DNA of 63,722 bases, filler included, from Craspedostauros australis (lineage: Eukaryota): NCBI GenBank assembly GCA_030167865.1. It is 23 parts of 23 records of this genome, joined end to end, with 100 filler letters (N's around TTAATTAATTAA, not from the genome) between each part and the next. Parts side by side here need not be neighbours in the genome. Positions count along the whole stretch, not along the records: positions 40,528 to 46,519 come from JALAGF010001796.1; 22 more parts are not named here. The stretch is one strand, 5' to 3'. The notes below the pieces were generated by a model. It had not been told where the DNA came from and searched no databases. It was given only the letters and a program-made list of their open reading frames with translations. The translations under genes and the position numbers were made by a program. This document shows positions 11,204-62,320 of the stretch, one piece after another (the stretch's first letter is position 1; every line of letters starts with the position of its first letter).

Positions 11204-11303
11204 NNNNNNNNNNNNNNNNNNNNNNNNNNNNNNNNNNNNNNNNNNNNTTAATTAATTAANNNNNNNNNNNNNNNNNNNNNNNNNNNNNNNNNNNNNNNNN
11301 NNN

Positions 11304-15741: not shown

Positions 15742-15841
15742 NNNNNNNNNNNNNNNNNNNNNNNNNNNNNNNNNNNNNNNNNNNNTTAATTAATTAANNN
15801 NNNNNNNNNNNNNNNNNNNNNNNNNNNNNNNNNNNNNNNNN

Positions 15842-29334: not shown

Positions 29335-32300
29335 ATGGACTCCAACAACATGGACTCCAACCACCAGGGTCAGCCTTGTCAGCAAGCACAGCAGCAAAGA
29401 CAGCAGATCACTACTATGAGCACTACTATGAGCACCACTATGAGCAATAATACGAATGATGACACCTTCACGGAACAGTCCCCGTCCTCGCATGATGCCT
29501 ACGCTCTCGCCATCATGGCTGTGGAAGAAGGCACGAGGCATCAACAACAGTCTCAGCAGCAGCAGCAACAACAACAAGTGGAGCTGGATAGATTGAGCAC
29601 GGCATCATCGGCCAGCTTCGCGCAAAGCAGTTCGAGGCAGCTCGAAGTGGACTCTCCGCAGCTTCAGCCGGAACAGGCACCACTTCGATCACCACTTCAG
29701 TCTGCCAATACTGCAGACATCAACAACAAACCAACCACCAGCACGTCTTCCACACCACAGGGCACAGTCGTGTGCTGCAACTCGGCCGCCAGTAGCGACG
29801 ATTCCGCGGCCGATCACAAGGCCTCCTCCGATTCCAGTCTCACTAAGCATCGCAAGTCCTCCTCCATGGAGATCCGTCGTCAACCCACACCGGCCTTGCT
29901 CATGCCCGTCCTCGAAACGAGCGGCACGGACGTCGATGACAGCGAGGACGATGACGGCAGCCATATGGTGCACAAGGGCGATGCTGATATTCACACCAAT
30001 CGCGAACTTATTCTGCCTCGCACGAGTTATGATGACGACGATGATAACCTCAACGACGACGATGAACATACTGCCGGCACGTTGTGCGGCATGCGATGCA
30101 TCCAATGGCTGTGTCTAAGACCCAGAGTCACGTTGCAGGCCCAGCTCATGCTGTCCTTCGGCTCCGTCCACACCATCGCCACGCTCTTCGTCATGCTCAC
30201 GTGCATCCTCATGGTCTACATCATCGGTCAGGACGTCAAGGACATCAACACGAACACCTTCCACGATCTCAACAACAGGATTCAAGGACGCACGGCGCGC
30301 TACCTCGCGGAGTCCCTGCAGGAACACATCTATCCCAAGGATATCGTGGAGATTCTCTATCATGCCACGTTGGATCGATTCGAAGGTTACAACGCGGCGG
30401 AGCTCGACGAAGGCACGGCCACGGATGCCTACGTTCCCTTCTGGGATATGAATGCAAAAACCAATCGGTATCCCATCCAGACGCCGCCTCTGCCGTTGGA
30501 TTGGGATTTCACCGACGTCGTCTTGGCGACAGAAGACAACCGCGACGACTATTTGCAGGAGCGGTTGGACAGGTACAGCTCCTCACGCAACGCGGCCTCG
30601 CAATTCGATATCAAACCGATCGTCAGCACGTCCACGGCCTCCTTCTTCATAACGGGCACCTGCGATCCCGACGAAACAAATCCCAACATGCGCACCTACA
30701 TGCCCAACTGCACAGCCGCCAACAACGACATTACCACCGGCGGCGTCATGCTTCCGACACCCTACACGCAGCACATCCACCGCAAGGGCAAGGACATCAT
30801 CCCCCTCATGAAGGCCATGTTCGAATTCAACCGCAACGTGCGCGACATCGGTCTCTACTTCGCCAGCCAAGGCGCGGGCGCCACGATCAACTATCCCAAG
30901 TACGCCATCAACGCGCGCGCCAATTTCACCTCCATCGGTTGCGAATGGCTCAGCGCTCCTAATCCATACGACTCATCGCGCACCATCGGTCACGGCATGA
31001 AGCTCGATCAATTTTGTAACGACAAAGGCACGCAGCTGCAATCGCGCGCTCATTACAATCCCGTCGAACGTGGTTGGTTCCGTGATATGGCCCTCAATCC
31101 GGAACAGGTCGTCGTCGACGGGCCCTACCTCGACGCGTGGATTCCCAATTCGTGGCTCCTCTCGTTGGGACGCGCCATCTACGATCGACGCACCAACGAC
31201 TTCATCGGATGCACCTTCGTCAGTATCGCGATCGAGTTCCTCGAGGATATCCTCAAGGCGGCGCGACTCACGGACAATTCAGAAGTCTCCGTGTTGCGAT
31301 GGGATGCGATGGGCACCGTCGTGGCGTCGTCGGCCCTCAGCATCGCCAACACGGGCAGCAGCGTCACGGCGTCGCAGATCAATATCGGTGTGACGACGGA
31401 ATTCTACGAGGAACTTTACAATCTCATTCCGAAAGATGGTCAGACGTGGGATCCGGTAACGATGCAGGAACGGTTCGAGAACACCATCTTGGATACGGAC
31501 GACTTCAGCGTCTCGGGATATCCCATCCCGCCCATCCCGGATGAGTACGATCCGAAGTACGTTCCGGCGTATTTGGCCATCGTCTCCAATGCCAAGGAAG
31601 ATGTATTGGAACCCGTCGAGAACCTCAACGAAAGCGTCGACGACAACCTGGATCATGTCATCAAGATCGCGGTCGGCGCTGGTGTTGCCAGTCTCTGTCT
31701 AGCGGCAATTATCATCCTCCTGGTGGCGCACATCATCACGGCGCCGTTGCAGGACATGAACACGACGGCCGACAACATCGTCAACAGCTTTGGCGAAGAA
31801 CGCGATCATGACGAACCAGCCACAACATCGGGAACCACCTACACCATCGGCGGTGCCGCACAATCCGGCGACGCATCCACCACGGCATCCACCGCAAATG
31901 GAAAATCGATTTTCCAGCAGGTTCAGCCCAAAACGACGAGCGCGCGGCTGCTGTGCACGCCGACGACCGAAATCGAACTGGTCGTCAAGGAATTCAATAA
32001 GATGGTGTGCAACTTCAGCGGGTCGCTGATGGCCCAATCCGATAAGAACAAGCTCGTCGAAACCCCGAACCGCTTCTTTCTGCGCGAACAATTCGTCGGT
32101 CTGTACAATCGCAAGAACAACAACAACAGTAACAGCAGTCTCGACGATATCGCAGCAGGTTACCAACAGGAGCAAGCGGAAGTCAAATACGAATTTCTGC
32201 ATCCTGGTCCCAACACCATCAGCGAGGAGAACGACAACAACATCCCGCAAAGCTCCTCCAAGTCCACAAGCACCCTCGTGTCCTCCAGCGCCGCAAGGAT

Positions 32301-35300
32301 ATCCCTGGAGCATCGACGACGTCCGTTGAGATCGCCGCTGTTCCTTTGGGTGGTGATACTGATCATCACCCCGTTGTTGGTGACGACTGTCACGCTTTCC
32401 GTCGTCGTCGTTTGGATCGCGTCCGATGAATTTCAAGAAAGCATCGACGATGCGCGAGATAGCTTCCTGCGCGTCAAACTGGACGTGCTGCGCATCAACA
32501 CGCGGTTGCGGGCAGACTACGTCGCGACGCAGACCAGCCGATCGATCCACGATGCCTACATTCTGAGACGGTACGCCAGCTGGTTGCTCTTTGGTGGTTT
32601 GAAGCTCGCGGCCGAGGATGCCTTCCAGGAGATATCGTCGACGATCTCGCAGTGCAGCGTCTATGGCTCCCCTTTCGAATGCCCGTGGGCGAAGGAGAAC
32701 TTTGTCTGTGACTGCGCGTGGCATGAGGGTTACCCGGGCTGCCAGGATTACGCAGTGTCTCAACGCCGCAAGCAACTACCGTACTACTTCGTCGAAAAAG
32801 ACAGAAACGGCAAGGATGGAGAACGCCAGGCCACGACTTTTCCGAACGTCGGAGTGACGCCAGCGAGCACCTCGTGGTACGAAAACATTCAAGATGTGCC
32901 CAACGAAACATTGCTGGATGTGGACGATCCGTACGCAGCGTTCAACATGCACAGCACGATGTACGATCGGCTGCGGGCCATTTCCGCAATTCCGATTTTC
33001 GCAGCGCTCCAAAATTACGATCCCACCAATGAGAATGGCATTGGGCGTTTCGTCGGATTCGAAGCAGATGGGTTGGGAATTGCTGACCAGGGTTGCGACA
33101 ATCATATGCAGGGCATTGCAGCGTACTGGGAGTCAACGGAGGAAAATCAAGGAAACGTGTACCGACCCGATCTTTGTCCAATTGGAAAGCATGGGATTGA
33201 CGTAAGGTGAGTGCGCGCCTGTGTCTTGTGCCTATGTATTGTGTGTGCAACAGATTGGCTGTTGCTTCTGCTGAGACTTCATGCATGGCGCTCTTCCCCT
33301 GCACCTTGCTGTGGCTTTCTGCATCATTGAATAAAGACATGCATTTGCCCATTTCGTCGCACATCCATCAATTGATTCACCCATCCAATCCATTGCCTCT
33401 CCCATCACATGCTCATTCATTCGCATGACACCGTAAAAACTATGCTCTGCTCGATTTCCGCTCGCAGATGTCGAGTATGGTATCACACTGGAAAGATGCT
33501 GGCAAACCCCCCACCGGGTGTAGAGCCGACGCCATTTCATCTGACAGCGCCATACGAGTTCGTCGATGGCAACACAGCCCAAAGCGCGACATTCTCCTTG
33601 GTGAACCCAAACACCGAAGAATATGTCGGCCAAGTGCTCCTCGATTTCACCACGGACAATATTTTTGACATCATGAACGAACATCGGACGCCGCTGTTGA
33701 AGAATGGAGTCCGTGCGCTGCTGACGCCTGGCACCAACTCGTCAGCTCCGCAGATTGTGCTCGGGTCGTCCTCTCAAAACAGCGATGACACCCAAGTCGA
33801 ATTCGACTTGTTCTCAGGATCCCACTACGCATGCGACACCTCCACGCCAAAATGCCAAAAGCAAGCGCGGGATGCGACGAAAATCTCGAATGACATGAAC
33901 ACTGGCAAGGCATCGATCGCCCGAATTGGTTTGTTTGTGGACGTTGATACAGTGGTGGATTCATACATTGCATACGAACCGGTATATGTCAACTCCATCA
34001 AGTTTGTCAACGCATCCGATTTCACCAGCGGGATCAACGTCAATTCAAAGCACATCATTTACTCGTTGGCGCTGGGTCAATCGATCGAAGAGATATTGCA
34101 ACCATTCGAGACTGCCGAAGATGAACTGCGGAGGGAGACGACGATCGGCATCGTGATTGTGTGCATCGCTATCGCCATATCCATCGTCGCCACCATCTAC
34201 ACCTCCTATGTTGTCACCCAGTCGATCACGGAACCCATGCTGTACCTGCTGGATCTGATCCGTTGTCTGAACAAGAATGACACGAGCCACGACCCTCCCA
34301 CCGTCGACCAGAACAAGGGCTCGAAAGAGATCATCAACGTCTCGAACACCATGGACACGCTGTACCGCGTGATCAAGCTGGCGAATGAAGCGTTCTACGC
34401 GGGAGAGTTGGGTACGGCGTATCACGTGCTGGTAGATTCGCTGGGCGTCTTCCGGGGCCTGAATAACAAGAAGGCCATCGGCGTGGTGTGCAACAACCTG
34501 GGCAACACGTTGCTCGCGATCTACCGCGAGATGCAGCAGAGCGGTGTGGACGTGATGTACGGCATCACGAAGAAGCAGCTGATCAAGAGAGGCACTTCGT
34601 ACTACCACGATGCCATCCGCGTGGGTGAAGACCTGTACGACGAATTCTACGCCGCGGAAGGCTGGACGCCGAACTGCCTTGACTTCATGCAGCATCTGTC
34701 GAACCGTTACTTCAACCGCGGCATGTTCCTGCTGACGATCAAGGATGACCATGATCAGCCGGATAAGATCATGGAGCTGGGTAACCGCGACTTGCAGATC
34801 TCCCGCGACATGGACGTGGAGATCGTCGACCAAGGCATCGAGACGGGATGGGGCAGTCTGAAGCGCGAGGAGAAGCTGTTCAATGTGTACTTGGTGCGCA
34901 TCCGCGGGTACCTGCTTCTGCTGGAGATGGGATTCCCCGACGACGGGCAGGCCATGGAGCACCTGAAGGAGATTCAGGAACTGTACGAGTCCGAGAAACG
35001 CAAGCTGCTGCAACCACGAGGCACGTCGGAGCTGTTCGCCGAGGTGGGATCCACGGGGCGGCTGCAGCAGGTGGAGGCGGAGCATGCCAAGTACTTCCTG
35101 ATCAAGGGCGAGCTGGAGAAGTCCGCCTCGATCGCCATCCGCATGCTGTTCGAGGACGAATTCATCTTCGTGGACGCGCAGCTGCAGGTGATGAAGACGC
35201 TGCAGCTGTACACGGAGCAGACGACCGCGCTGGGCGGCGAATACGCTAGAATCCGGCTGGGCCGCAAGCTGGAGGAGCTGAACGAGGCGCTGTGCTACGA

Positions 35301-35622: not shown

Positions 35623-37367
35623 GAAGCTCTGGACTANNNNNNNNNNNNNNNNNNNNNNNNNNNNNNNNNNNNNNNNNNNNTTAATTAATTAANNNNNNNN
35701 NNNNNNNNNNNNNNNNNNNNNNNNNNNNNNNNNNNNATTCGTCCTGTGGTACACGAATACCACACGACTCATTCGAATACTACCAAGATGAGTGTAGTTG
35801 GAGCGTTCGATGTGTTATTAGTCATCGGATCTTCGCCTCCTGCTCTGACTTGGAGACAGATGTCAACGTGGTGACATGTTGACATCCTGTTGACGTCAGT
35901 AAGCGTCCTTCTGCTCTCCAGATGTCACATTCCATTGGTGATGCAGGAGTCTGTCAGATGATATCGTCATCTGAGGTTTAGTTGGGAAGTACCTCGAGAT
36001 TCTCTTGGTACCATTGATGGATGGACGGACGATCTTCCAATTCTCTCAGAAATCGTCGATTGCAAATTTCCTCCAGAAATCTTGCTTATTTTCATGTGTT
36101 CCATTTCCGCTGTAATTCTGACGAATCACAGCATTCTATAGACACGAATGTAGTTATACCGTCCAAGTGCGTATGAGAGAATAACGGGTGAACGATGCAC
36201 ATATACACGTACATCTTGACGTATACTCACATGTACATCTCGACAAAAAGACGGACACTCTTAGTTGGATTTTTGTGTGCTTGTGGGACACGATCCAGAA
36301 GGGAAGACCTTGCTGACTGCCAGACTTGGTGAATCTGTTGATGCAGTTAGTGAGGATAAACCATCTGGGTGATAGTTGTTGGTGACAATGAGTAGATTAG
36401 TGCTGTTGTGCTGATCTTGAGTTGTGCTACTTGTTATTTTGAATAGTCTGCATTGTGAGTTGATCAGTTTGAGATGTAGGATGAAGAAACGATGTTCAGT
36501 TGGATGGTGTGGCTCTGCACTGACCCTCAGAGGTTCAGTGCTGAGAACGGACAAGGCTTCTCTCTCTCTCTCTCTCTCTCTCATTCTCCACCATCTGTAG
36601 TAGTCGTTCTATGCTCAAGTACAAGGCCTTGACATCTCGATTGAGGTTGTAATTGAGAACATAGGTAGTCAAGCAAGAGGAATTGCAGTTGGATTCCCTG
36701 TTCGTGTTGAAGCAAGTCGGATCTCCTTGTTGCTGTCATGTGGAGTTGTTAGTTGACATAGCTGGCAATGGAATCGAGATGAGCTGTGACACAAGGATTC
36801 AGAGGAGCATATAGTTCCCGGAGTACATTGAGTTCCGTGAACCAAGTGAGTTTTGAGTCCGCAATGATTCATGAATGAAAGTGGGAGAAGGAGGGAAAAG
36901 AGGGATTGTTCCGTATTCGTAGGCGGAGGGTTTCGCGTCATAATTGGCGCGCAAAAACAAATTCATTGTTCGACATGGGACACACTAAGTGGAAAGTAGT
37001 CTGTTCTTTAGATGAACTTCAACTGTGTCCATGAGACGTCGTATGGACATCTGGACGCTTTGTGCCACCAAGTGTTGCAAGAACAGGTTGGTTGGTGGAC
37101 ATCGGCACTTCAAAAGGGCTGGTTCGTCAATTTCCTCAACAAAAAAGAAAGGAACTTGTAACCAGCGAACCTTCCGTTGATCCGGGCGCGACGCAGAGAT
37201 GACTGGCCTCGCATGAGAAACAGCGGCGAAAAGTCGAGTCCAAAGACATCATCCCAATTGATCAGCGATTTGATTGATTGACTCATTGATTCATTGATTC
37301 TAATAGCTTCATTGATTCAGCGACAGATCGACTGATAGACTGATGAACTCATTGACTGATAACAAAC

Positions 37368-38129
37368 ATGAAAACCGTATCAGCCGCATCATCCGCATCA
37401 TCCGAACCAGCCGCATCATCTGGCAAGTACAAGATATTTGGACCAGCTCTCTTGCGAACATTCCGATGTTTGTGGATACTGGAAGAAGTGGGTGCTGACT
37501 ACGAGCATTTCGCAGTCCTTCCACACTCAGAGGAACTCAAGAAGGCGACCGGGATCCGCAAGGTGCCCGTGCTGATCACGCCGAACGGGTTCACTGTGAG
37601 CGAAAGCTCCGCCATCAACACGTACCTGTGCGACACGTTCTGCAACGAGCATCCGACGCTGGTCCCTCGTGCTGGCAGCCATGAGCGCGCGAGGTACGAT
37701 CAGACCATCTCCGTGCTGACATCAGACCTGGATGCACAAGGCATTTGGATTCAATCGAAATACGAGACAATGAGAGAAATATACGGCTACATCCCCGAAG
37801 CGGTGAAGCAGGCGAGGAAGCACTTCAACAAAACCAATCGCTCGTTGATCAAGCAGCTGCAACAGGAAGGTCCTTACCTGATGGGAAAGCATTTCACGCC
37901 CGCAGATCCGATATACGTGCACATGCTGGAAATCAGCCGAGCGATCGGTTGGGATGACAAGTGGAAAGATGTGGAGTGCATGCGCAACTACATGGCGCTT
38001 TGCACGCAACGGCCTGCATACAAAAAGGTGCATGCCGTGAGAGTCAAAGAAATGCAAGGCACATCCCCGTACGAAGCAGTACGACGAAACGTGCGATCGG
38101 CAAAAACCAAGCAACGCAGCAAGCTCTAA
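37368..38129 (+). CDS. Glutathione S-transferase family protein
   Basis: RTFRCLWILEEVG, KVPVL (cis-Pro), SESSAINTYL, and the YLMGKHFTPAD N-capping motif. Confidence 0.92.
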   Translation: MKTVSAASSASSEPAASSGKYKIFGPALLRTFRCLWILEEVGADYEHFAVLPHSEELKKATGIRKVPVLITPNGFTVSESSAINTYLCDTFCNEHPTLVPRAGSHERARYDQTISVLTSDLDAQGIWIQSKYETMREIYGYIPEAVKQARKHFNKTNRSLIKQLQQEGPYLMGKHFTPADPIYVHMLEISRAIGWDDKWKDVECMRNYMALCTQRPAYKKVHAVRVKEMQGTSPYEAVRRNVRSAKTKQRSKL

Positions 38130-38821: not shown

Positions 38822-40420
38822 GAGGCACTACCAGGCGCAACGGTCTTCAACTGGGTTTGGTTCTACGTCGTATAGACGCAAGAGAGCAACTGTAAAAAGC
38901 TTGTGTCATTTGTGATGGGTCCACCTGGGGTGGCAATGTGCACATCTTTGGTCACACATATGCTGCTACTCCCGACCTCATGGAGTTCCGCATCTTGGTG
39001 GNCATCGTTAAAGTGCAAGGACTGCTCATGTACAGAGCTGACATCGCGAATGCAGTCGCCAAAGCACCTGCCAGTGCACAACATCACTACATGCAAATCG
39101 ATGATCAGTTCCGCAGCTAGTGGAAGCACAATCATGACGTTGCTCTGGGTCAACACATGGTTGTGCTTTTCTCAAGAATCTACAGAGCATCCTGAAGCAC
39201 CGCTACAGCAGAGTCCACATACCAATCAGCTACTCAAGGACATGGGGTTCACACAACAACTCAAGCACCATGTTTGCACATTGGAAACCTTCATGCCCAC
39301 AATGCATACATGCCCTGGCAGGTGGAAAACTTTGCGGTGGCAACCAAGGATGAGACCTTTATGAGGAGTTCTGTGACATGCTTGATGCTCGGCTGAACCA
39401 TCCCATCACTTGGTACGGTCTGTTTGCACACTACAACGGACTGGATCTCACTCAGGCCTGACGACGTGTGAATGAGCACTGCTCCACATACATCGACAAG
39501 GTGCTCTGGCAACACAATTGGCATTGATTGAAGTCTACACAACGCCTACCCATGTGCGCAGACAATGGATGTGTGTGGCAATTGGATCAGGCAGTCTTAC
39601 CCAACATGGAAGCCAAGCATCATGGTCTGCAATCCAAGTCCTTCAGCTACCACTGAGCCATNNNNNNNNNNNNNNNNNNNNNNNNNNNNNNNNNNNNNNN
39701 NNNNNNNNNNNNNNNNNNNNNNNNNNNNNNNNNNNNNNNNNNNNNNNNNNNNNNNNNNNNNNNNNNNNNNNNNTACCTCTTCAGGTATGTTGCATCCACC
39801 AGGGACTTTGGGATCACCTACTGGTGACAGTCTCCTGTTCCGCAGCTTGCAGATGTGGCAGCACTGAAACACCTCTTGCCTGCCAACAACAAGCGCCACA
39901 GCCCGGCGGACCAGGCCACCATCCAGGCGACTTTCCTCTACGTATATGCAGATGCCAATTGGGGTGCTGATACAAGGTGTCGTAAATCCACCAGTGGCAT
40001 TGCGTTGCTTCTTGGCGGCCCTGCTGTCGCGTGGAAAGCCCACGTCCAACCCACCATTTCTCTCAATACCTCTAAAGCCNNNNNNNNNNNNNNNNNNNNN
40101 NNNNNNNNNNNNNNNNNNNNNNNNNNNNNNNNNNNNNNNNAGATCAGTGTGTGCCAACAGCATGCCATACTTATCTACAAGGACAACCGAGGTGCCAGAA
40201 TGATGGCAAACGCCAACCAACCGCCAAGGAACTCCAGGCATATCGATATACACACATTTGCGGTCTGCGATTGAGTGGGCAGAGATCTCATCCTCATCGC
40301 TGATGTGTCATCCAACCCCAATGCTTCAGATCTGTGCAACAATCAGATGCCTGTGATTCTGTTATTTTGACATACGGACCTACTCATGGGATGTATTCCA
40401 TCATTCTACGTTCGCCGGTG
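38822..40420 (+). mobile_element. Degenerate Ty1/copia reverse transcriptase-RNase H
   Basis: ADIANAV, YADANWGAD..RKSTSG, YKDNRGA and RHIDIH motifs, with stops, frameshifts and gaps. Confidence 0.85.
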
Positions 40421-41739: not shown

Positions 41740-41901
41740 CTGTTAGTTGGTTGGCTGGCTGGCTATGCTCTGTTATTGTTCTGTTAGTGCTCTGTTGGGC
41801 TGGCTGGCTGTATCAGCACAAAATCCGAATAGTGCTAAGTACGTTACTCCCGTAGCCCCCACTATCTATAAATTTCACTTGTGTTCGGTTCAGCAATCGC
41901 A

Positions 41902-41971
41902 TCGCCTGTACCTCAACGGTAGAGCACCAGTAATTCTAACTGAGGTTCTGGGTTCAAATCCCGGCATGGTG
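41902..41971 (+). ncRNA. tRNA-like module in 5' LTR (mutated A and B boxes)
   Basis: TACCTCAACGG and GGTTCAAATCC variants of the 3' LTR module. Confidence 0.6.
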
Positions 41972-42358
41972 CTTTGCTTTTGCTCTCCCCTCGTGATTTT
42001 TCGATAGTGCTCTTTCAGATTAACAGTCGCAGCTAGTTCTGCATCGCTGAGTTAGGACAACCTTGCACAACATGCCTTCGTGGGCGCGTTGCGATCACCG
42101 GATTTCGACCCAGTCTCACACTTGTCTGCTACGGCAGCACTCCCACTTCGTCTGGCAGCATTAGCCACCCAGCAATGAGGGTGCCCCGAGATGGGGAGAC
42201 GCGGGAGATGATAACTTTTCGTCATAGTGCTCTTGAGCAGGTGGTCCACGGTCGTAGCGTAGGGGAGTGTCAGCACAAAAACCGAATAGTGCTAAGTACG
42301 TTACTCCCGTAGCCCCCACTATCTATAAATTTCACTCGTGTTCGGTTCAGCAATCGCA

Positions 42359-42428
42359 TCGCCTGTAGCTCAACGGTAGAGCACCAGTAATTCTAACTGA
42401 GGTTCCGGGTTTGAATCCCGGCATGGTA
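42359..42428 (+). ncRNA. tRNA-like Pol III module in 3' LTR (not a functional tRNA)
   Basis: A box/D arm TAGCTCAACGGTAGAGC and T arm CCGGGTTTGAATCCCGG; TATAAA about 30 nt upstream and T-runs downstream. Acceptor stem and anticodon loop are non-canonical. Confidence 0.75.
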
Positions 42429-43114
42429 CTTTGCTTTTGCTCTCCCCTCGTGATTTTTCGATAGTGCTCTTTCAGGCTGTGTTGCGTACCTCTGGCAGTG
42501 ATCGAATGGAACCAAATTGGGCGGACTGAGGTATTGTATCAGCCGCTCTGTGAGTTCTGTGAAGTCGGTGTCGACTTGGTGCGTGTGGGTCTCTTGCTCG
42601 CTTTGGTTGGGAAACACTGTTGCTGTCTGGATGACAGAATCAATGCAATGGTGGATGCAATCGCAGCTTCACTTCCAAAAGCAAGGGATGAGAAAGCCCG
42701 TTTGTGCACCAAGCGCTGTGTTTCTTCACGACACTCCAGATGCTCATTTTGTGATGTCTTGTCCTGTTCTATCTTTGTCTGATTGTGTCCGATCTTGTCA
42801 TCGCAGAAAGATTCCAAATGACTCCGACCCACCAAAAAACGATTCTTGAACTCGTGAACAAACCCAAATGTCATGAGATTGTCCCAAACCCAGAAAAAAC
42901 AACACGACAGATCGCGGGCTCCATTAGATGTAGCCTTCCCAACTTCATGACCTCATGACTTTAAAGATAAAGCCCCTATGGAGCTATAATCTCGGATTAT
43001 TAATCTAAGTTTGTTAAATTGCATGTTTGCCAAGTTTCATTTAAATTGAAGGCCCAAAATCAAAGAATCCCTGGAGGGACCGCACCGCTATTGACTCACG
43101 GGTCGTATGTATGG

Positions 43115-46100
43115 TCAGTCATCACGCCTTGTCGCATTCCCATCTGGTTCGACATCATGCTCCTCGTCGTCTGCTGCGTCTTCGTCCTCGAACTGATCCA
43201 TCTCCCCCGCGTTTTCGTTGTTCTCCTTGCCCCTTCTGCTTTGCGTATTGATCTTGTCCAGAGAATCCCGCATCCAACTGACGATGTTCCGCACAACGTT
43301 CATATCCTGACGAGTGGTGATGCGATACGCATTCTTGTCGGTCTTCTGACTTTGCCGGCGACGTTCGTCGAGCTTGTCCATCGATTTGGTCAGCAGTGGA
43401 CTCTTATCGGTGGGAAAGCCTGCGTAAAGGGACGTTCCATTGACCTTGTTTCCGGAATACGGGATATCAAGACGAAGTTTGTCTTGCCTGCTTGCAACGC
43501 AGTACAGTCGGTTAAAGCCAAATATGATGTCAACGAGGCTGTTGTGAATCTTGTCTCTGTTGTCGCGGATGTCCTCGATTCCAATTGGGGTGGAATCAAA
43601 ATAATCTTTGGCTTGGACGCAGGCCGTGAAGAGTTCCACTTCCCATCTCGAGAAATTACCTGCGTTGTCTGTGATCTTCCTCGCGCCAACAGTGGAAACG
43701 TATCCATCTGCGAGATTGCTCGATCCCTGCGCCACGGTTGTGAGTGATGGGCAGAATTTCTGATTGGTTGGATTGAATTGGGGCGCTTCTATGTCTCTGA
43801 TCACTTTCTCAAGATCGACGCAGGCCTTCCTCATCTTGAGAAGCTCGTCTGCCAGCTTCTTGTCTATGTCCAACGTTGGCACCAGGGTCTCCCATGTGAT
43901 AGCATTGAAGCTCTCGGCGTTGTCCCATGCCGAGATCAGTTGACGAGGATCTTTGCCAGAGTTTGAATTGACTTGCTTGGTTTTCAACTCGTCCCAACGC
44001 TTCAACACGATGCGAGCCTCAAGGGCTTTGCGAAGTCTTTTCCATTCCTTTTGTAACCACTGATTGGCCTCCTTCGTGGTCTTGGATCCAAAGCCCTCGG
44101 GCTTTTTCGGGCCGGTCGGTTCGTAGACGCTCATCTGAGAAATCTGGTGGTACATTCCATCCATCGCGAGGTCAGACCAACTAGAAACCGGAATCACATC
44201 TTTCAGTGCTTCCCAATTCTCTCCTACGTAGTCTGTCTCGCCACCACTGTCTCCCGTGGACAGCTTGAGCTTCATTCCAAGGGTATCCTCAACGATGGAT
44301 TGGATGCATGTCCTGTTATCCAATGAGACGGTCGTGGCTGCAGTGATGGCAGCACCAATGATCTGCGTTGACAACGCCTCGTAGGCAAATGGCGTTGTTC
44401 CGAGAAAGCCATCTTCACCGTTTAGACTCTTCCCCCTCTCCAACAGCCACACACAGAAGAGTTGAATTGCCTCATCCACGATGAATGGCTTCTCCAGTGT
44501 CGGTTGACCCTTGAAGGTTTCATTGATCACGGTGTTGTTGTTTGCATCCAGAACAATGTTGTCGAATATCGTGAACGGCTCGGGTGTCACCAGTCCAAAC
44601 CTCGTGACGAGAAAATACATGATCTCCTTGTTATCCATTCCAAAGTCCTCAAAGTTGATTCCATAGTCGAGATCCATCGCATGTTGCCTTGCTCTTTCGA
44701 TGTCCATGGGCACGGTGAAGTTTGTTTGATACAGAAGAATCGCAAGTGCCTGTGCCGCTCGCAGAGATCGGTCGCTACCTTTCTCTTCAAAGTCCCTATC
44801 GTCCCACAGACCCGCCAAGCCATTGCTTCTCGCGAATTTATCAAACACCAACGACATCAACCTCATCTCATCGCCAAGCTCGCCGAACTTCAACAGCGTC
44901 TCTGTCAGCTGGTTGACCAAGATCGAGGCCATCCTTGCATTGTGTGATGCGATGATGCTCAGGAATGGCGTCTCCATAATCTTGTCGTAGGTGGGAAGCC
45001 TGGACTGTTTCTTTAGGTTTCCGTCGTATCCATTGCAAAGGGCTTCGTACACTTCCTTGGGATCCTTTTTGGCACTGGGTTCAAGACAGACGAAGTTGTC
45101 GCTTAGAGAACCGACAGCCCCACCGTACATTCCGGTACCTGCGATGGAGAAGACCACCTCGATGGGTGGCTTGCTGGTGTCTCGTGGGAGCCCGCCATCA
45201 TCCGTACTGTTTCCGTTCTTCACGTTTCCAATGGCCTTGTTCATGATGTAGTGACCGAGATCTCTTCCAAGGTCTTCATAGTTTCGAATGACCTCTTTCG
45301 CAAGATTGGGACAGTACCTTGCTTCATCAATGGCAAACACTATCCGAATCCTGTCGTCCTTCACCTTCGGGTGTCCATTGCCTTGCGCGTCGTCGTCGGA
45401 ATCGTCGTCAGAATCGGCGTCAGTCGCGGCGCCTTGCGCGTCGTTCGTGGCTTGAATCGAGTCGAGTGTACGCAACCGCTGCTGCACCGTGTTTGCGATC
45501 GTTGATAGCACCTCGCCGTTGTTTTCGAAGAAGTCATCATCCATACATTTCTTCAAAAAACCCCGGCTCTGATTCGTCCGAGCTTCGCTTGCTTCCGCCG
45601 TCGCTACGTCATTCTTTGCTACGTACATCAGAGTGATGACAGCATCTCTTGACTCTGCACTTGTGGCCAAATCGACTGTCTTGCCTGTACCGCTGCCGGA
45701 AAAGAAGACACGGACAATGCTGGATGCTGCCGGTTCCTTATATTGGGTGAGATGCACTCTTCGGGGGATTCCATATTCGTCGCCCATATGTCGGAACTTG
45801 CATTTGCCGATGTAGTATGCTACTGCTGTGGCAGTGCCACATTTCATGCGGCGAAGAGAATGCTTTGTGCGTTTCCGTACAGCGGTGAAGAGCCTCTCGA
45901 GACTCTCCAGTACCGATTGGCGGAGATCCACTTTTGGGTTATCGAGTCCACCGAGACCCTTGATCGACTCCCATGCGAATAGCGCGTTGCCCTCATTGCC
46001 ATCGTTGTAGAGCCATTGGGCGAGGAGGTGGTCTTTTTGAAGCTCGGCATAGGCGTTACTGTACGATCGTATGTCTCCCTCCTTGTCGCCATCCGTTTTA

Positions 46101-46519
46101 ACCATTTCGATGATCTTCTTTCGGAAGGTCATCATTCTGTCGAGCCATTCAAGCTCCCATGCGCTCATCTTGTCTTCATCTGAACCTGTTACATTCATTT
46201 TGTTGATTGCGTCCTTGATGACGCTTTCGCCAGGCTTCGGCAACGTCTTCAGCATCTTGATGACATCGCCATCATCCTTGATGGTCCAGAAGTCGAAGGT
46301 CTTGAAGACAGAATCGTAGCTGGTCACATTGAGCAGCGCGTCACCACCGGTGGAGCCGGCCTCATTGGTGGAGGGTGCGGCCATGCGGAAGCCGGGGTGC
46401 CAACGTTGGTGAAGTCCATCGTGATGATGTTGGCACTGACCACGACGCAGTTGCGCAAGGAATGGCGAGGACGACACCGAAGGGGTGGAGCCAGACCTGA
46501 ATGGCTGCAATGGCCGTGG
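43115..46519 (-). CDS. P-loop NTPase + putative PD-(D/E)xK (QxK) nuclease-fold protein, paralogue 2 (>1130 aa; frame open to contig end)
   Basis: Walker A SGSGTGKT; Walker B IRIVFAIDEA; FSIAGTG; HNARM; SNLADGYVS...VQAKDY; acidic tail. Confidence 0.75.
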   Translation of the reverse strand, partial: PRPLQPFRSGSTPSVSSSPFLAQLRRGQCQHHHDGLHQRWHPGFRMAAPSTNEAGSTGGDALLNVTSYDSVFKTFDFWTIKDDGDVIKMLKTLPKPGESVIKDAINKMNVTGSDEDKMSAWELEWLDRMMTFRKKIIEMVKTDGDKEGDIRSYSNAYAELQKDHLLAQWLYNDGNEGNALFAWESIKGLGGLDNPKVDLRQSVLESLERLFTAVRKRTKHSLRRMKCGTATAVAYYIGKCKFRHMGDEYGIPRRVHLTQYKEPAASSIVRVFFSGSGTGKTVDLATSAESRDAVITLMYVAKNDVATAEASEARTNQSRGFLKKCMDDDFFENNGEVLSTIANTVQQRLRTLDSIQATNDAQGAATDADSDDDSDDDAQGNGHPKVKDDRIRIVFAIDEARYCPNLAKEVIRNYEDLGRDLGHYIMNKAIGNVKNGNSTDDGGLPRDTSKPPIEVVFSIAGTGMYGGAVGSLSDNFVCLEPSAKKDPKEVYEALCNGYDGNLKKQSRLPTYDKIMETPFLSIIASHNARMASILVNQLTETLLKFGELGDEMRLMSLVFDKFARSNGLAGLWDDRDFEEKGSDRSLRAAQALAILLYQTNFTVPMDIERARQHAMDLDYGINFEDFGMDNKEIMYFLVTRFGLVTPEPFTIFDNIVLDANNNTVINETFKGQPTLEKPFIVDEAIQLFCVWLLERGKSLNGEDGFLGTTPFAYEALSTQIIGAAITAATTVSLDNRTCIQSIVEDTLGMKLKLSTGDSGGETDYVGENWEALKDVIPVSSWSDLAMDGMYHQISQMSVYEPTGPKKPEGFGSKTTKEANQWLQKEWKRLRKALEARIVLKRWDELKTKQVNSNSGKDPRQLISAWDNAESFNAITWETLVPTLDIDKKLADELLKMRKACVDLEKVIRDIEAPQFNPTNQKFCPSLTTVAQGSSNLADGYVSTVGARKITDNAGNFSRWEVELFTACVQAKDYFDSTPIGIEDIRDNRDKIHNSLVDIIFGFNRLYCVASRQDKLRLDIPYSGNKVNGTSLYAGFPTDKSPLLTKSMDKLDERRRQSQKTDKNAYRITTRQDMNVVRNIVSWMRDSLDKINTQSRRGKENNENAGEMDQFEDEDAADDEEHDVEPDGNATRRDD

Positions 46520-50607: not shown

Positions 50608-52013
50608 GATGAAAGCACGGTCCTCAGCAGTGGTTTCGTGAGCCCACAATTGCAGGACGGCGTCGCCTCTGACTTCCGTGTCGTTTTGGTAGCACTCATC
50701 GACATACTGAGTTGCAAAGAAGCCGTATGCCTCCCAAAGCTCCTTGCCATCGTTGCGGTAGCGGTAGTTGTCGAGCTTCACATCGTCGGTGAATCCGCGC
50801 CCTTCCAGCTCTTCGTCGAAGGCGGAAGACTTGAAGAAGTCGTAATCCTTCCAGTACTTGTAAATGAGTACCATGAACTGGCCAGTTCCGACGGATGTCA
50901 TGTAATCACCAAGGCTGTTTGGTGCAAAAGCGGCCAAAGTATCACGCGCCGCGAAGTTGAGAAAAAGGGTGTCACGGCACATTGGTCTGACGAATGGATA
51001 GATCTTGTGGTTGTATCTGCGCAGGGTGTTGTGGATGGCGATGATGTGCGGCTCCATGGTCAAGTGGGTCTTTCCAAGATGGCTCACCCACTGTCGAAGT
51101 GTGAAATGTTGGACGCAAGGATAGAGGGAGACCAGGAAAGGAGGGCAGGGAGATGTTGAGTGGGATATGTTCGGCGCTGTGAGCGGGATATCGACAAAGT
51201 GTGGCCGATGGAAACAGGCATCGGTCTCCGATAGATTGGACATCGACAGCCGAACGAGCCACTCTCTACAGAATGATGTTGCCACAACTGCAAATATTTT
51301 TGAACGGATAGTATCACCAGTACGCTGTACAGTACAGCGCTGCATAACATTGCGCCCCACCGCACGGTACATCGTGGAACGACGTATCGCATGCTTACCT
51401 CATGGTATTGAGAATCTGCGGCCGCGACGGTGGTCTTGGCGAACAACCATTCGGTCTCGTTGGAATTCCCGACTGTGTAAACCTTAGAATCAGCTTCGCG
51501 ATCAAGCTGGATGGCCATGATCTCGATATTCTTGAGATTCTGGGTTTGGCGGAAGAGGATCATCGGGGCCTTGAAGTAGCGTGGCTCCTTTCCGACGCGG
51601 CTCAAGATTTCTTGGTCCTGGGTGGTGTTGACGTTGTTGTACACCTCCGGATATGCCTGGTGAGGGTTTTTCTCGAGATCGTCCAAGCCGACGTAGTCCA
51701 CGTAAAAGAGCTTGTTGGCCTTGGCAAGGGCCTCGAGGTTGACGATTCCTTCCTTTTCGAAGAAGTTGCGAAGTTCTGGTGTGAGCATCTTACTGTCCTT
51801 GACGACTTCGATCATGACTGGGTTGACGCCGTTCAAGAATTGACGTGCAAACTCCTGGTCCTCCTTCCAATGATTGAATGCGTGTTCTGGGAGCTTGAGG
51901 AATGGATTGTCCACTTCCATACCGAGTGGTCCCTTGGCCTTGAAGATTCTCTCGTAGTTCTCCTTCGTGGCGATGTCATTGATAGTGAGCGGGTTCACGG
52001 CGATTCCGGCCTG
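50608..52013 (-). CDS. LOX: Lipoxygenase central part, variant B (intron 51398-51091)
   Basis: Near-identical reverse complement of 15842-17246 with the same ends; intron 1 nt longer; 5 amino-acid differences. Confidence 0.95.
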
Positions 52014-54153: not shown

Positions 54154-55291
54154 TGTTCAGATATATTGGTTGTCGCGCTCATTCGATTCACTCAGGGCTG
54201 GTGTGTTGCCATCATCATAGATCTCTCGGTTCCCGACCGTTATCGGGACATGGCCGAGTAGGCCACTGGATGAGGGTGCTTGGATGTCGCATAAGACAGG
54301 TANNNNNNNNNNNNNNNNNNNNNNNNNNNNNNNNNNNNNNNNNNNNNNNNNNNNNNNNNNNNNNNNNNNNNNNNNNNNNNNNNNNNNNNNNNNNNNNNNN
54401 NNNNNNNNNNNNNNNNNNNNNNNNNNNNNNNNNNNNNNNNNNNNNNNNNNNNNGGTATCTTTGCAAAGTCGTACCCCCGATTCCTGACACCCTTCCATTG
54501 TCGCACCACCATACTCACTCACACACACAAATCGTCTCTCGTCACACTCCCTTGTCTTGCTCTTTCATTCATCTCTTCTGTCCCATTAATCCATGGTCGA
54601 TCTCAATTGAATGATGCTCCCTTTGTGTCTATCGTAGATCTCCTTCTTTGTATTCTTGGTGAAGCCGTCTGCGATATTGTCCTCTGAGCGCACAAATTGA
54701 ATTCGTGCTTCTCCGTTGTCTATCAGCTCCCGAGTGAAATGATGTCGTATGTCGATGTGTCTCGTTCGCGCTGATGTCGACGGATTGGAGGCAATGAAGA
54801 TAGCCCCCACATTGTCCACATACACATCCACTGGTTTGGTCATCGTCAAGCCGATGTCCTCCATTAGCTGCGTAAGGAAGCGAATCTCTTTTCCTGCTTC
54901 TGACAGCGCGACGTATTCCGCCTCTGTCGAGCTGAGAGTTACACTTCGTTGTGCCTTCGATCTCCATACGATGGGCACCCCTTGAAGTAGGACGAGATGT
55001 CCCCCGACACTGATCCGGTTATCCTTGTCTCCCGCAAACTCACTGTCTGCGTAGATCTCGATCTTCCATGCGTTGTTCTCCAGTGGGGTTGGTTGCATTC
55101 GTAGTCCGTAGTCCCTCGTGTCTGATACGAACTTCATTACTCGCAGCATCTCCTTGTATGCTGCAGCTGATGGTCCGTCCAGCACCTTGGTAAGTTCGCG
55201 CACCGCGTTCGCAATGTCTGGTCGCGAGTGCTTCACCAAGTATAGCAGCATACCTACTCCACTTCGGTATCTGCTGTGTCGGTCACTGTCC
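54154..55291 (-). mobile_element. Ty1/copia RT C-terminus-RNase H (54586-55291), PPT and probable 3' LTR (54546-54154)
   Basis: SRPDIANAV, YADSEFAGD, LSSTEAEYVA, DNVGAI, RHIDIRHHF and NIADGFTK; purine tract followed by TGTGAC...GAACA. Confidence 0.92.
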
Positions 55292-55391: not shown

Positions 55392-57658
55392 CGCGAAAAA
55401 ACATTGGAGTAAGGCCACAGACGGTCCAGTGCACAACACAAACCATCGGAACGGGTGACGACCGGGAAGAGGCGCACGAGACGCAACGAGCTGAGGAACC
55501 GCGAGGGGACTCGGCGAATGGTTAGACCAGAAGGGCAAGAGCAACAGTCGGTGGCAGCACGACGAACGACTCAGAGCCCACAACAAGCGCCTGCGGATCG
55601 GGAGGTTATACCGCAACAACCCAACAGCAGCAGACGACAGGATACGAACGAAGGGGGAAGGATGACACGGGTGAAGAGGAGAATGCTGAGGAAGCGAACG
55701 GGGCAACTGAGGATAGGGTTGCAGAACTTTGGAGGACTCGGAAGGAGACCAGGAGTAGTTGACGAAGGATTGAAGAGGTGGATGAACGAAGGCGAATTCG
55801 ATGTATTTGGGATCACGGAGGTGAATGTGGACTGGAGGACGGCATCAACAGAGCACACACTCAAAGGGCGAATACAGGAATGGTGGCCAACAGGAACGGC
55901 AGTGGCGAAGACGGCGAATAACACGACCAACGAACCCACGCAAAGCAAACAGTGGGGAGGAGTGGCAATGATCAGCAGATTCCAAGCGGCAATCCGCATC
56001 ATGGGACAAGGCGAAGACCCAACCAAGTTGGGGCGATGGGTGTGGCAGCGATACCGCGGAGCAAATCAGCAAACGCTCCGAGTGGTAACAGCATATAGAC
56101 CGTGCAGACCACGAAGCAAGGGATTCTTGAACACACACGCACAACAGCGGCGGTACTTCAATGAGAAGAAGATGGACAAGGAGCCTCGAGCGGCGATGAT
56201 AGAGGACCTTCAGAAAGCGATTCAGGCGTGGAGAGNGGAAGGCGACCATGTAATCGTGGCAATGGACTGCAACGAAGACACGAATTCGGCCACAATGCGG
56301 CAATTCCAAGAGGCCACAGGGCTAACCAACACGATGGAATGCGCAGGTGACGAAGTCAGTCGATTGCCAACGCATCGACTAGGAAAAGTGCCTATCGACG
56401 GAATCTTCGCTACAGCAGGAGTTCGGATCGAAGGGGCAGGAGCAAGCGAATGGGACGAGGGGATACAAATGAGGCAAGCAGACCACCGATGCCTGTGGAT
56501 CGACGTCAGCATGGTCGCGGTGCTCGGGCAATCAATGCCCAACTTGCGCAAGGCGGTGTCGAGGAGAGTGAAGACAGAAGACCCAAGGATCGTACAGAAG
56601 TTCAACGACGCCTACAAAGCGCACTTGAAACAGCACAAAGCAAGGGCAAGAGCGTTTCGGCTGGAACAAGCGGCATCAGAAGAATGGACGAAAAAAATGG
56701 AGAAGGAGGCAGAGAAACTTGACAGAATTCGCGTGGAAGGAATATGGAAAGCCGACAAGACCTGCCGCAGACTAAGGATGGGAGGCATACCGTACTCGAA
56801 GGAGTACAAACGGATTGAAGCCAACATCGGGCTGTGGAACAACGTGGTGAGAAAGCAACGAGGAGCCAACATCTCGTCGAAGACCATCGTGAGACTGGCG
56901 AAGAGAGCAGGGGAAACGCGTAAGGTACAAGAACTGATGAGATGTGCCAACGAGGAGGTAGCAAAGGAACAGGAATCGGCGTATGGGAACCTCAAGCAGT
57001 TCAGAACAAGAGCGACGAAAGCGAGAGAGAACTGGTTAGAAGGACTAGCGGAAGCGAGAGGCGGGGAGGAAAGGAGACGAAGAGGGGAACAGCAGCGAAG
57101 CAACAACAGAGGAAGAGAAGAAAGAGAGGTTGGAGAAGCGACATCGCAGCAACTACGTCAGCTGAGGATGAAGGAGAGAGTGCGGGCAACATATCGGAGG
57201 ATACGGATGGCCACAGGCGAAAATGCAACGGCAGGTATATCCATGGTGATAGCACCGGATGGGAACGGGCAGTGGGTGGAACGGACCAGCAAAGAAGACA
57301 TCGAGAAAGGATGCATGGAAGAAAACAAGAAACGATTTCGGCAAACCGAGAACACGCCGTTCATGCACGGCCAGCTGGCNAGAGAATTCGGGTATCTCGG
57401 GGTGACCGAAGCGGCGGAGCAAACGCTCAACGGAAGCTACGCACCACGACCATGGGTTGATGAAGGCGCTGCGAAGCTCCTACAAGGGCTGAAATCGGTA
57501 GCAAGCCGGAGCATACCAGCAGGAATGACAACGAAGGAGTTCCAACAAGGATGGAAAAGAGCCAAGGAGGACATGTCGGCAGGACCATCGGGGCTGCATT
57601 TTGGCCATTTCAAAGCTATAGCGCACCATCGGAGGAATTCGGAGTTTGAAGCAAGCAT
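55392..57658 (+). mobile_element. Non-LTR retrotransposon ORF2 apurinic-endonuclease region up to the RT start
   Basis: LRIGLQNFGG, GITEVN, QWGGV, DPTKLGRW, VVTAYRPC, MDCNE, PIDGIF, ADHRCLWID and SAGPSGLHFGHFK. Confidence 0.9.
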
Positions 57659-58864
57659 NNNNNNNNNNNNNNNNNNNNNNNNNNNNNNNNNNNNNNNNNN
57701 NNTTAATTAATTAANNNNNNNNNNNNNNNNNNNNNNNNNNNNNNNNNNNNNNNNNNNNAACACAGCTGCACGAAGCGGAGAAGCGCTTCAAGCGTGTCTG
57801 CGCATCGAGGATGTTGAGCATCCATGGATGGAAGATGCTTCCACATGGCCAGCTCACAGTTGCCAACGCCAGCATTCGTACTCGGCACTTCATCAAGTGT
57901 CATGGATTGGAAAACACACACACAGATCAGGAATTCGGAAAGCAACGATTGCCGTCGTTGATGAATCCAGCACCAGTTCTATCATGGAGGAGAGCATTGC
58001 ATGCCAGGCGACGATGAAGGAGAGGATTGACGAAAATGACCAACATCTTCCCCGCAATCTACATCCGATGGAGATGAAAACATCAGGCAACCGATGCCAT
58101 GAGTACCTTACAACATGTCCGACGAGTCATCCCCAATGAAGGTCCTCAAGTAACGGGCACAGCAGTGCGTTGTGAAGGCTTGTAGCCGTCAAGACATCAG
58201 CAGATTCGCGACACAAGTTCCAACGCGCCGCCCGAAACGTAACGGACTGGAATGAATGCTCCTGCTCTACCTTCGGAGGGCATGTGTTGCGTTTCGCATC
58301 TTCCCCATGCACTCTTTGCTTTCCCGGACGGTTGCGGTAGAATTGGCTTGCGTGAACTGTGCGGCAGTGACATCAGGCAACACTATTGGACTTGATTTCG
58401 AGTGGACGGGACGCATGCTTTATCAGTTGATATGCGTACGTCAGGTAGAGACGTTGGCAATGGATCTGCTCAAGGCTCGGCTGTGCTGACGTTCCGTACT
58501 CCTTGCTAGTTCACCATCACACCAGCATCAATCGGATCTTCCTATCAGATCGAGACGTCACAATACCAGACCAAAAGCATAACACTCTGGCGATTCTGGT
58601 ATGCAGTATAGTACTATCCACAACGCTACGCACAGCATTGGCAAAGCGAGCACAACGTGCAAATCAACCTTCTTTCTTTTCATTGAATGCAAGCAAAAGG
58701 GTTGAACTGGTGAATGGCTCGACATGTGCGGCGTGCCATTGGATGGATCACTGATCATCTGCTTGAATCATAGTTACTAGTACTACTCTGATTCCTCGTC
58801 TGATCCATCTTCTTCATTCCATGACATGCTTGCTCCTCAGTCTGGTGTTGTTGTCGTTGGTGCT

Positions 58865-60588: not shown

Positions 60589-60857
60589 TATTAGAGCACT
60601 ATCGAAAAATCACAAGGGGTGAGCAAAAGCAAAGTACCATGCCGGGATTCGAACCCGGAACCTCAGTTAGAATTACTGGTGCTCTACCGTTGAGCTACAG
60701 GCGATGCGATTGCTGATCCGAACACAAGTGAAATTTATAGATAGTGGGGGCTACGGGAGTAACGTACTTAGCGCTATTCAGTTTTGTGCTGATACTCCCC
60801 TACGCTACGACCGTGGACCACCTGCTCAAGAGCACTATGACGGAAAGTTGTCATCTC
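60589..60857 (-). mobile_element. Second copy of the tRNA-LTR TRIM: internal 3' part, PPT and 3' LTR (60794-60589)
   Basis: 60857-60795 matches 42205-42267. The LTR has an intact B box GGTTCGAATCCC, with the tRNA-like module at 60704-60635. Cut by the contig end. Confidence 0.92.
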
Positions 60858-60957
60858 NNNNNNNNNNNNNNNNNNNNNNNNNNNNNNNNNNNNNNNNNNN
60901 NTTAATTAATTAANNNNNNNNNNNNNNNNNNNNNNNNNNNNNNNNNNNNNNNNNNNN

Positions 60958-62140
60958 TGGATCGTTGCCGAAGAATTGGCGATGTGGTGACTCCTTTTGA
61001 TTCTTCGCTACGGTGATGTTGGCGATGGCAGTGGCAGTGCTTGCAGCTGCTGCCCACAGGCCATGCCTATACTCTTCGTCGAGTTGTGCTCCGTTGAGCA
61101 TGGAGCGGATCTTGGTGTAGAGGTACGCAAACTTGCGTTCTACTCTGCCGTTCTGTTGCGGCGTGTTCGATGCCGTGAATTTGAATTTCACGTTCAGTCC
61201 TGCATCGATGAGAATATCCTGCGTGGATTTGTTCTCTCCGCTGTTGTCNCCTCGGAAGATGATTTGTTGATCACCAGTCNGTGACTTGATNGTNTGGANG
61301 AATNGTTTGATGTANCCTGGTTGNTCACTNTTGTTCTTGAGAAAGAAACTCCAGCAGTGATCCGTGCAGTCGTCCACGATCAGGGTCCAGTAGCGTTTAT
61401 CTCCGAAGCTTATGTGTTTAGTGTATCTAATGTCAATGAAGAGCCGTTCGCCGTGGCGAGTTGCTCTCGGAATGGTTGCCTTCGGGATGTTCTTCACTCT
61501 TGCGTTCGCGACCGCGCAGTCACGACATACTGGCATCTCGCCGATAATCTTCCATCCGTATTGGGCGGCTGTCCGCTTCATGGCTTCGAGTGGCGCGTGG
61601 CCGAGCATTCGATGCAAGTTCACCGCGCTGATCTCCTTGGATGGGTTCTTGACGATGGCTGTGCAAGCCTTGTCGTCGTTCGTTGGCATGATGGAATGCA
61701 TCTGCACTCCCGTGATGAATCCGTTGGCTGTGGGGAAGACTCGATCGAATACGATCTTCGTTCCGGATCCGTTGATAATGTCCATCAGAATGCCGTTGCT
61801 ACCAAGCTGGTAACCGTTGTACAGAGCCTTGTTCGTGGAGAAAAGGTTCACCGCCATTTTCGGTGTGTACTTCACGTCATCGAGCCGGATGATGTGGCCA
61901 GTGTTGTCTCGTTGCTTGACCTTCAAGCGAATGGATCCCATTTTGGGAGAGTCCAGTTTCGTACTGTCTCCCACTTGGATGAAGGACTTGATGTGCCGCA
62001 CGTTGAAGAGAGCGGCGTCTGAATTGACGATGTGACACGAAGCTCCACTGTCGGCGAGCCAGGTGTCCTTGTTGACCTTGTCTTTGTATCGAGTGCTCAG
62101 CTCATGGAGCTGCTCCACAGCTGCTGCAGCTGTATCGGTC
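60958..62140 (-). mobile_element. Ty1/copia protease, GAG-pre-integrase and integrase
   Basis: WLADSGASCH; LHRMLGH...CRDC; RLFIDI; IVDD; DNSGEN; TPQQNGRVERK. Confidence 0.95.
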
Positions 62141-62320
62141 NNNNNNNNNNNNNNNNNNNNNNNNNNNNNNNNNNNNNNNNNNNNTTAATTAATTAANNNN
62201 NNNNNNNNNNNNNNNNNNNNNNNNNNNNNNNNNNNNNNNNTCTTCCTCCACATCAACACATGTTCAACATGCACTTGCAATCTGCCCATCCCACACTTCG
62301 ACATGCCAACATTGCAATGA

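Follow-up and report, generated by a model that had tools for sequence, protein, structure and literature searches.

A likely Helenus/TRIMp3-type TRIM with a putative half-tRNA-Asn primer site in a probable diatom

The plus strand of the window, by which we mean the whole 63,722-nt stretch of DNA that was analysed, holds a compact repeat-bounded element of 664 nt at positions 41811-42474. The host, Craspedostauros australis, is probably a raphid pennate diatom, a stramenopile. A repeat search returned a direct repeat of 41810-42018 and 42267-42475 at 96% identity, with which BLAST agrees, and this repeat comprises a 5' LTR (41811-42017, + strand, TA...CA) and a 3' LTR (42268-42474, + strand, TG...CA) of 207 nt each that differ by 8 substitutions and no indels. 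Between the LTRs is an internal region of 250 nt (42018-42267, + strand) that is non-coding, with a maximum stop-free run of 77 codons and neither gag nor pol. It terminates in a polypurine tract, GTAGGGGAG (42259-42267, + strand), that abuts the 3' LTR, and about 30 nt 5' of this tract BLAST finds a near-copy of the LTR 3' end (42223-42241, + strand; CATAGTGCTCTTGAGCAGG versus GATAGTGCTCTTTCAG). The outer ends of both LTRs are abutted by the same 5-mer, GGCTG, as left and right target-site duplications (41806-41810 and 42475-42479, + strand).

Because the GGCTG duplication sets the boundary independently, the inner end of the 5' LTR can be assigned to the CA at 42016-42017, and the G at 42018 is the first base of GGCTG only by coincidence. 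The left flank of the element is GGCT-rich, with further copies of GGCTG at 41753 and 41798, so that the duplication is somewhat less improbable than that of a random 5-mer would be. Taken together, the 207-nt LTRs, the target-site duplication, the polypurine tract and the LTR ends indicate an intact TRIM that was integrated by an integrase. The TRIM is not young, as its LTRs are 96% identical and its 5' LTR starts with TA, and the primer site could thus have drifted.

A third copy of the LTR is present on the minus strand at 60593-60857, where BLAST identifies a 63-nt internal tail (97% identical), the same polypurine tract and an LTR, starting at a contig edge. The LTR part (60593-60794, - strand) is 95% identical to the TRIM LTR and is without the last 4 nt. 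The near-copy of the LTR 3' end is also kept in this third copy (60819-60837, - strand). Two of the three LTR copies start with TA (41811-41812 and 60793-60794), with TG found only in the 3' LTR of the TRIM (42268-42269), and the consensus of the LTR family may be TA...CA.

Each of the three LTR copies contains a tRNA-like segment. The segment in the 3' LTR (42364-42423, + strand; TAGCTCAACGG; GGGTTTGAATCC) matches Rfam family RF00005 with 32.7 bits and that in the third copy (60640-60699, - strand) with 35.4 bits, against a gathering cutoff of 29 bits, while the decayed segment in the 5' LTR (41907-41966, + strand; A-box TACCTCAACGG, B-box GGGTTCAAATCC) falls below the cutoff at 22.2 bits. 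A box A, TAGCT...CGG, and a box B, GGTTC, are present. The matches span model positions 6-65 of 71, and the segments are thus without an acceptor stem; ARAGORN calls no tRNA in any of them. In the window as a whole ARAGORN finds no tRNA genes, with or without introns, and Rfam detects the LTR tRNA-like segments only and no tRNA gene. About 35 nt 5' of the segment in both TRIM LTRs is a TATAAA (41867-41872 and again 42324-42329, + strand), a putative promoter element. Just 3' of the segment in the 5' LTR are T-runs of four and five residues (GCTTTTGC at 41976-41983 and ATTTTTC at 41996-42002, + strand), which we take to be possible pol III terminators. On account of these LTR tRNA-like segments the element fits the Helenus/TRIMp3 class.

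Immediately 3' of the CA that ends the 5' LTR is the sequence GATTAACAGTCGCA (42018-42031, + strand). The initial annotation had proposed this as a primer-binding site lying directly behind the LTR in place of a TGG-type site, and reading the sequence at the junction bears this out, with no TGG-type primer site after the 5' LTR. Allowing up to 2 mismatches, the 14-mer matches the window once, with 0.30 matches expected, and the primer site is present in only one element copy within the window. In the reverse complement of GATTAACAGTCGCA, a stem strand of 5 bases leads into the loop CTGTTAA, which is followed by 2 bases of the returning strand, and TGCGACTGTTAATC is what the host tRNA-Asn(GUU) would be expected to read at positions 27-40.

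We extended this reverse complement by 3 bases that close the stem, added by inference, to give a 17-mer anticodon arm, for which there are 97 exact-match stretches in viral contigs. ARAGORN was applied to the first 60 of 80 loci listed, and in 58 of these the 17-mer lies across the gtt anticodon of a called tRNA-Asn, in agreement with the proposed complementarity of the site to tRNA-Asn(GTT) positions 27-40. The remaining two loci, L002 and L019, gave no call. Both have a T-arm-like GGTTCGACTCCGATC about 30 nt past the 17-base Asn arm, which would suit tRNA-Asn genes that carry an insertion or have an unusual variable region. These stand-in tRNA-Asn genes come from phages and giant viruses, not from the host. 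All 14 bases of the primer site are complementary to positions 27-40 of the sampled viral tRNA-Asn(GTT). Of the 97 viral occurrences tabulated, 89 have a G at position 26, immediately 5' of the arm, and since the element has G rather than C opposite this position the complementarity stops exactly at the stem, after 14 nt; 3 extra bases could pair if position 26 were bulged. The sequence CTGAGTTA, for which additional pairing with the D-arm had been proposed, is present at 42047-42054 (+ strand) as described. Folding 42032-42110 against the 5' part of a viral stand-in tRNA-Asn gives -23.4 kcal/mol, a value equalled or bettered by 14 of 500 shuffles; support for the D-arm pairing is weak.

The anticodon arms of eukaryotic tRNA-Asn vary between lineages, and on the tRNA side the sequence match described here is with viral stand-ins and rust-fungus elements, not with host tRNA-Asn. 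Furthermore, tRNA-Asn normally bears heavy modifications at loop bases 34 and 37, which could weaken pairing; the iMet half-primers of copia and Ty5 have the same modification problem at position 37. The resemblance might then be due to chance or decay, the host tRNA-Asn having a different stem and the true primer being another one or no longer recognisable. Such a reading would be in keeping with the use of stand-in tRNAs for the comparison, with the presence of the site in a single copy of an element whose LTRs are 4% diverged, and with the relatives of the copia fragment considered below, which are without the site. It is nevertheless difficult to reconcile with a match of 14 out of 14 bases in a known half-tRNA register at the sole possible position for a primer site, for which we calculate a chance of less than 1e-6 (14 given bases at a fixed position, allowing for about 50 tRNA arms and 3 registers). 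In addition, the site agrees with the sampled real tRNA-Asn arms in the lineage-variable part of the stem, and the same 12-nt core occurs at the same position in consensus sequences of fungal Helenus elements in the supplement of Kojima 2024 (PMC10886601). We regard chance or decay as unlikely.

The interpretation that we favour, and consider likely to be correct, is that 41811-42474 is a Helenus/TRIMp3-type TRIM in a probable diatom that is primed by half a tRNA-Asn and copied by the proteins of another element. The site at 42018-42031 would pair with positions 27-40 of cytosolic tRNA-Asn(GUU), a stretch that takes in all of the anticodon loop together with the 5' strand of its stem and two bases of the 3' strand. 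Priming from within a tRNA requires a free 3' end at that point, and the primer would thus most likely be a 5' tRNA-Asn fragment produced by cleavage behind C40. We infer such a cleavage by analogy with Drosophila copia, for which cleavage of the initiator tRNA for priming has reportedly been demonstrated biochemically. Synthesis of minus-strand DNA would begin at 42017 and proceed back across U5 and R. Having no genes, the TRIM would depend for its copying on proteins from an autonomous element, in all likelihood one of the Ty1/copia superfamily.

The same site could also be served by a different source of primer, whether an intact tRNA that is nicked only once annealed, a tRNA-Asn from an organelle, a tRNA-Asn precursor, or the tRNA-Asn-like transcript of another repeat family. 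Sequence alone does not separate these sources, and no positive evidence points to any of them; to our knowledge, the only biochemically characterised case, that of copia, used a pre-cut cytosolic tRNA fragment. In favour of such a source, tRNA fragments are abundant in diatoms according to Rogato 2014 (PMC4247016); the supplement of that study lists one tRNA-Asn GTT gene, without its sequence. Overall we consider a source other than a pre-cut cytosolic tRNA-Asn to be distinctly improbable.

Self-supply, in which the primer is either a pol III-made, processed tRNA-like RNA from the LTR (expected to end in ...CUGUUAAUC) or, as in Tf1, the 5' terminus of the element transcript itself, is very improbable: the LTR does hold a tRNA-like unit in which A-box- and B-box-like motifs can be recognised and which is followed by T-runs, but the longest Watson-Crick run of 42018-42047 with either LTR is 4-5 nt (shuffled sites: mean 5.8, maximum 12), the predicted duplexes, at -13.9 to -14.6 kcal/mol, are less stable than those of shuffled sites on average (-18.3), the anticodon region of the LTR tRNA-like segment, CCAGTAATTCTAACTG, does not read GTT, and the tRNA-like sequences of Helenus elements are described as not complementary to their primer sites (Kojima 2024, PMC10886601). 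With no pairing between the primer site and the LTRs that flank it, self-priming is not supported.

The surroundings of the TRIM have to be read in the light of how the window is built, since it consists of small contigs chained by N44-TTAATTAATTAA-N44 linkers (37 sites, for example 60858-60957 and 62141-62240), with scattered single Ns. An 8-base family, D1, reported by the repeat search simply reflects these linkers. Beside the TRIM is a 1131-aa ORF (43118-46510) with no detectable homologue. Elsewhere in the window, a GST ORF (37356-38126) is 92% identical to a Craspedostauros-labelled marine transcript and 42% identical to a Seminavis protein, whilst for an ORF at 29335-33207 the protein atlas points vaguely to chytrids and ciliates. 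The GST match outweighs the latter and is the basis for placing the host as a probable raphid pennate diatom. Long ankyrin-repeat ORFs are found at 308-2362 and 10068-11204, and several ORF fragments with a lipoxygenase domain lie on different contigs (14263-16879 and 50608-52013). A 751-aa ORF (55455-57707, + strand) has a weak endonuclease/exonuclease/phosphatase match (E = 4e-5; 23.9 bits, with a cutoff of 24.5) and is possibly a non-LTR retrotransposon. A long array of ~60-nt tandem repeats occupies 62400-63400 (- strand) inside an open frame.

Several stretches of the window are related to copia. One is a Ty1/copia polyprotein fragment at 60958-62139 (- strand) that reaches from the protease beta-barrel to the integrase (Pfam Pol_BBD, E = 1.8e-14) and has 105 copia-type relatives, the best about 41% identical. 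This fragment and the third LTR copy are co-oriented on neighbouring contigs, with the linker at 60858-60957 between them. Adjacency across contigs is no proof of linkage, as the window is made of linker-joined contigs; should the order across the linker be that of the scaffold, the TRIM might have arisen from the neighbouring copia by deletion, and the fragment may be regarded as a candidate helper. A second piece, at 54454-55290 (- strand), is the C-terminal RNase H part of a copia polyprotein (RNase H end at 54589-55290), with 52-61% identity to relatives from metagenomes. Behind it come a stop, a 3' UTR, the purine run GGAAGGG and the LTR start TGTCAGGAATCG, and then by a gap; this LTR represents a second family that has only its first 6 bases (TGTCAG) in common with the TRIM LTR. 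More distant still are two pieces that are 21-29% identical to metagenome copia proteins, namely an RNase H-like stretch (39831-40376, + strand) and a gag-like ORF in which a zinc knuckle is weakly recognisable (12721-13558, + strand); neither an LTR nor a primer site could be made out 5' of the gag-like ORF.

It had been anticipated that the primer site would lead to an autonomous helper carrying the same site, an expectation that our searches did not bear out. Among 79 metagenome loci of relatives of the copia fragment (30-46% identical), none has ATTAACAGT in primer-site orientation, and none has the iMet-half motif outside coding sequence; many of the contigs concerned are circularly collapsed, so that LTR pairs are not reliably definable in this set. 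The junction motif CAGATTAACAGTCG has 83 matches in viral contigs, none of them beside a copia gene, and a copia scan of the viral contigs revealed no relatives. Six of the 79 metagenome loci (L106, L109, L111, L112, L115 and L126) share a conserved AACA|CGTTTAAACGTG between LTR-like sequence and gag. This motif is a palindrome in primer-site position and fits none of the compared tRNA arms. A tRNA-Leu reading of the CGTTTAAACG motif in the six loci was rejected, as its register closes no stem and the sampled tRNA-Leu(TAA) arms differ.

A bolder proposal, to which we attach a low probability, is that the TRIM extends the Helenus/TRIMp3 type for the first time beyond fungi, animals and plants and is perhaps an internal-deletion derivative of an autonomous diatom copia with the same tRNA-bearing LTR, in which the tRNA-like module acts on the genomic RNA (for example on its 5' end, stability or packaging) and is not a pol III relic acquired by a parasite. 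The idea of a deletion derivative arises because the third LTR copy, with its identical polypurine tract and tail, adjoins the co-oriented copia fragment. An action on the genomic RNA would follow from the position of the module just 3' of the TATA box, where this RNA would begin. If this proposal is correct, the tRNA-like module is part of the LTR of a working autonomous element.

Half-tRNA priming was long regarded as an oddity of copia and Ty5, both primed by initiator tRNA. The tRNA-Asn primer of the TRIM had initially been taken to be unusual, a view that is overtaken by Kojima 2024 (PMC10886601), in which half-tRNA priming is extended to several tRNAs, including tRNA-Asn, in TRIMs of rust fungi, and tRNA-Asn-GTT is given as having been chosen once among fungal Helenus elements. 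What stands of the initial annotation as a whole is the site, the tRNA-Asn arm and the register; the rarity of the primer does not, and the tRNA-like segment in the LTR had been missed. As tRNA-Asn half-priming was described in fungal elements in 2024, the present case represents a new host and not a new mechanism. Going by the text of that paper (PMC10886601), the class and the primer type were already on record for rust fungi; the novelty lies in the host lineage and perhaps also in a tRNA-bearing LTR common to an autonomous copia. LTR copia elements dominate the repeat content of diatoms (Maumus 2009, PMC2806351), and a term search of that account of diatom copia found no discussion of primer sites, tRNA or TRIMs; likewise, among the literature matches listed there is no account of Helenus or TRIMs in diatoms. 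The occurrence of the same site and LTR design in a probable diatom suggests either a repeated origin or travel with an old copia lineage between distantly related eukaryotes. Elements of this kind inflate tRNA-gene predictions, and the type of primer site provides a marker for pairing TRIMs with their helpers in diatom genomes.

The closest parallel to the element is with the Helenus elements, which are described as TRIMs with tRNA-derived LTR sequence from fungi, animals and one plant (Kojima 2024, PMC10886601), groups to which the probable diatom host does not belong. The TRIM architecture is alike, with two short LTRs, a primer site, a polypurine tract and a non-coding interior, and a tRNA-derived segment with A-box and B-box is found in each LTR, the published Helenus boxes reading TRGCY and YGG (box A) and GGTTC (box B) (PMC10886601). 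The 5-bp target duplication reported for fungal and plant Helenus (PMC10886601) is also shared, although GGCTG here stands in a GGCT-rich flank. In both, the primer site is not complementary to the element's own LTR tRNA-like part, and a copia-type helper is presumed; primer-site types of fungal Helenus are stated to be common to Copia elements (PMC10886601).

The likeness extends to the primer site itself. Most fungal Helenus families are said to have primer sites for an anticodon loop, with that of tRNA-Asn-GTT among them; tRNA-Asp is named elsewhere in the same text, probably for the same group (PMC10886601). The Asn-type sites read [c]gattaacagtcg and belong to the families Helenus-3_PGr, LTR-2_PSt, Helenus-2B_PSt, Helenus-3_PHord, Helenus-9_PHord, Helenus-9B_PHord, Helenus-4_PHor and Helenus-2_UVF (PMC10886601). 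In the supplement to that paper, 8 Helenus internal consensus sequences begin [c][g/a]ATTAACAGTCG, Helenus-2_UVF-I begins GATTAACAGTCG right behind an LTR ending in CA, and iMet-type sites begin ggttatgagcccag, with 14 nt in the 27-40 register. The half-tRNA register originally assigned to our site from copia and Ty5 is thus matched in position, 14-nt length and register by published iMet- and Asn-type Helenus sites. The first 12 bases of the site are those with which Helenus-2_UVF-I starts, in the same register after CA, and 11 of them (ATTAACAGTCG) are found in the 8 consensus sequences. Bases 13-14 are CA here and AA in the Asn-type families, a difference that is expected if the tRNA stems of the hosts differ.

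Two further differences concern host and LTR: the host here is probably a diatom, as opposed to rust fungi for the Asn-type families, and the LTR is 95% like a copy that possibly belongs to an autonomous copia, whereas the Helenus LTRs of Kojima 2024 (PMC10886601) are described as unlike those of their Copia partners. Kinship to described Helenus was judged by short-motif look-ups in the supplement of that paper, in which five LTR-specific strings out of 6 motifs sought are absent and the other is found only in unrelated tRNA-like parts. The absence of the five LTR strings indicates that the element is not one of the listed Helenus families. Sequence similarity to these is not required, because multiple independent origins are proposed for Helenus (PMC10886601).

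Other systems can also be compared with the TRIM. In comparison with Tf1-type self-priming, complementarity to the element's own LTR is limited to a 4-5 nt run, no better than in shuffles. Cassandra is likewise a TRIM with the relic of a pol III small-RNA gene in each LTR, this being 5S rRNA in plant hosts as against tRNA here (PMC10886601). Half-tRNA priming is known from Drosophila copia and yeast Ty5 (genus Hemivirus; Kikuchi 1986 and Ke 1999, as cited in PMC10886601), and plant copia elements have sites for half tRNA-Met (Osser/Bryco) and half tRNA-Ile (Bianca) according to Neumann 2019 (PMC6317226). These differ from our element in being autonomous copia elements rather than a non-coding TRIM and in using initiator Met or Ile rather than tRNA-Asn(GUU), with cleavage of the primer assumed here by analogy. 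In all of them, as in the TRIM, the site abuts the 5' LTR, pairs with an anticodon stem-loop over ~13-15 nt and ends within the 3' strand of the stem.
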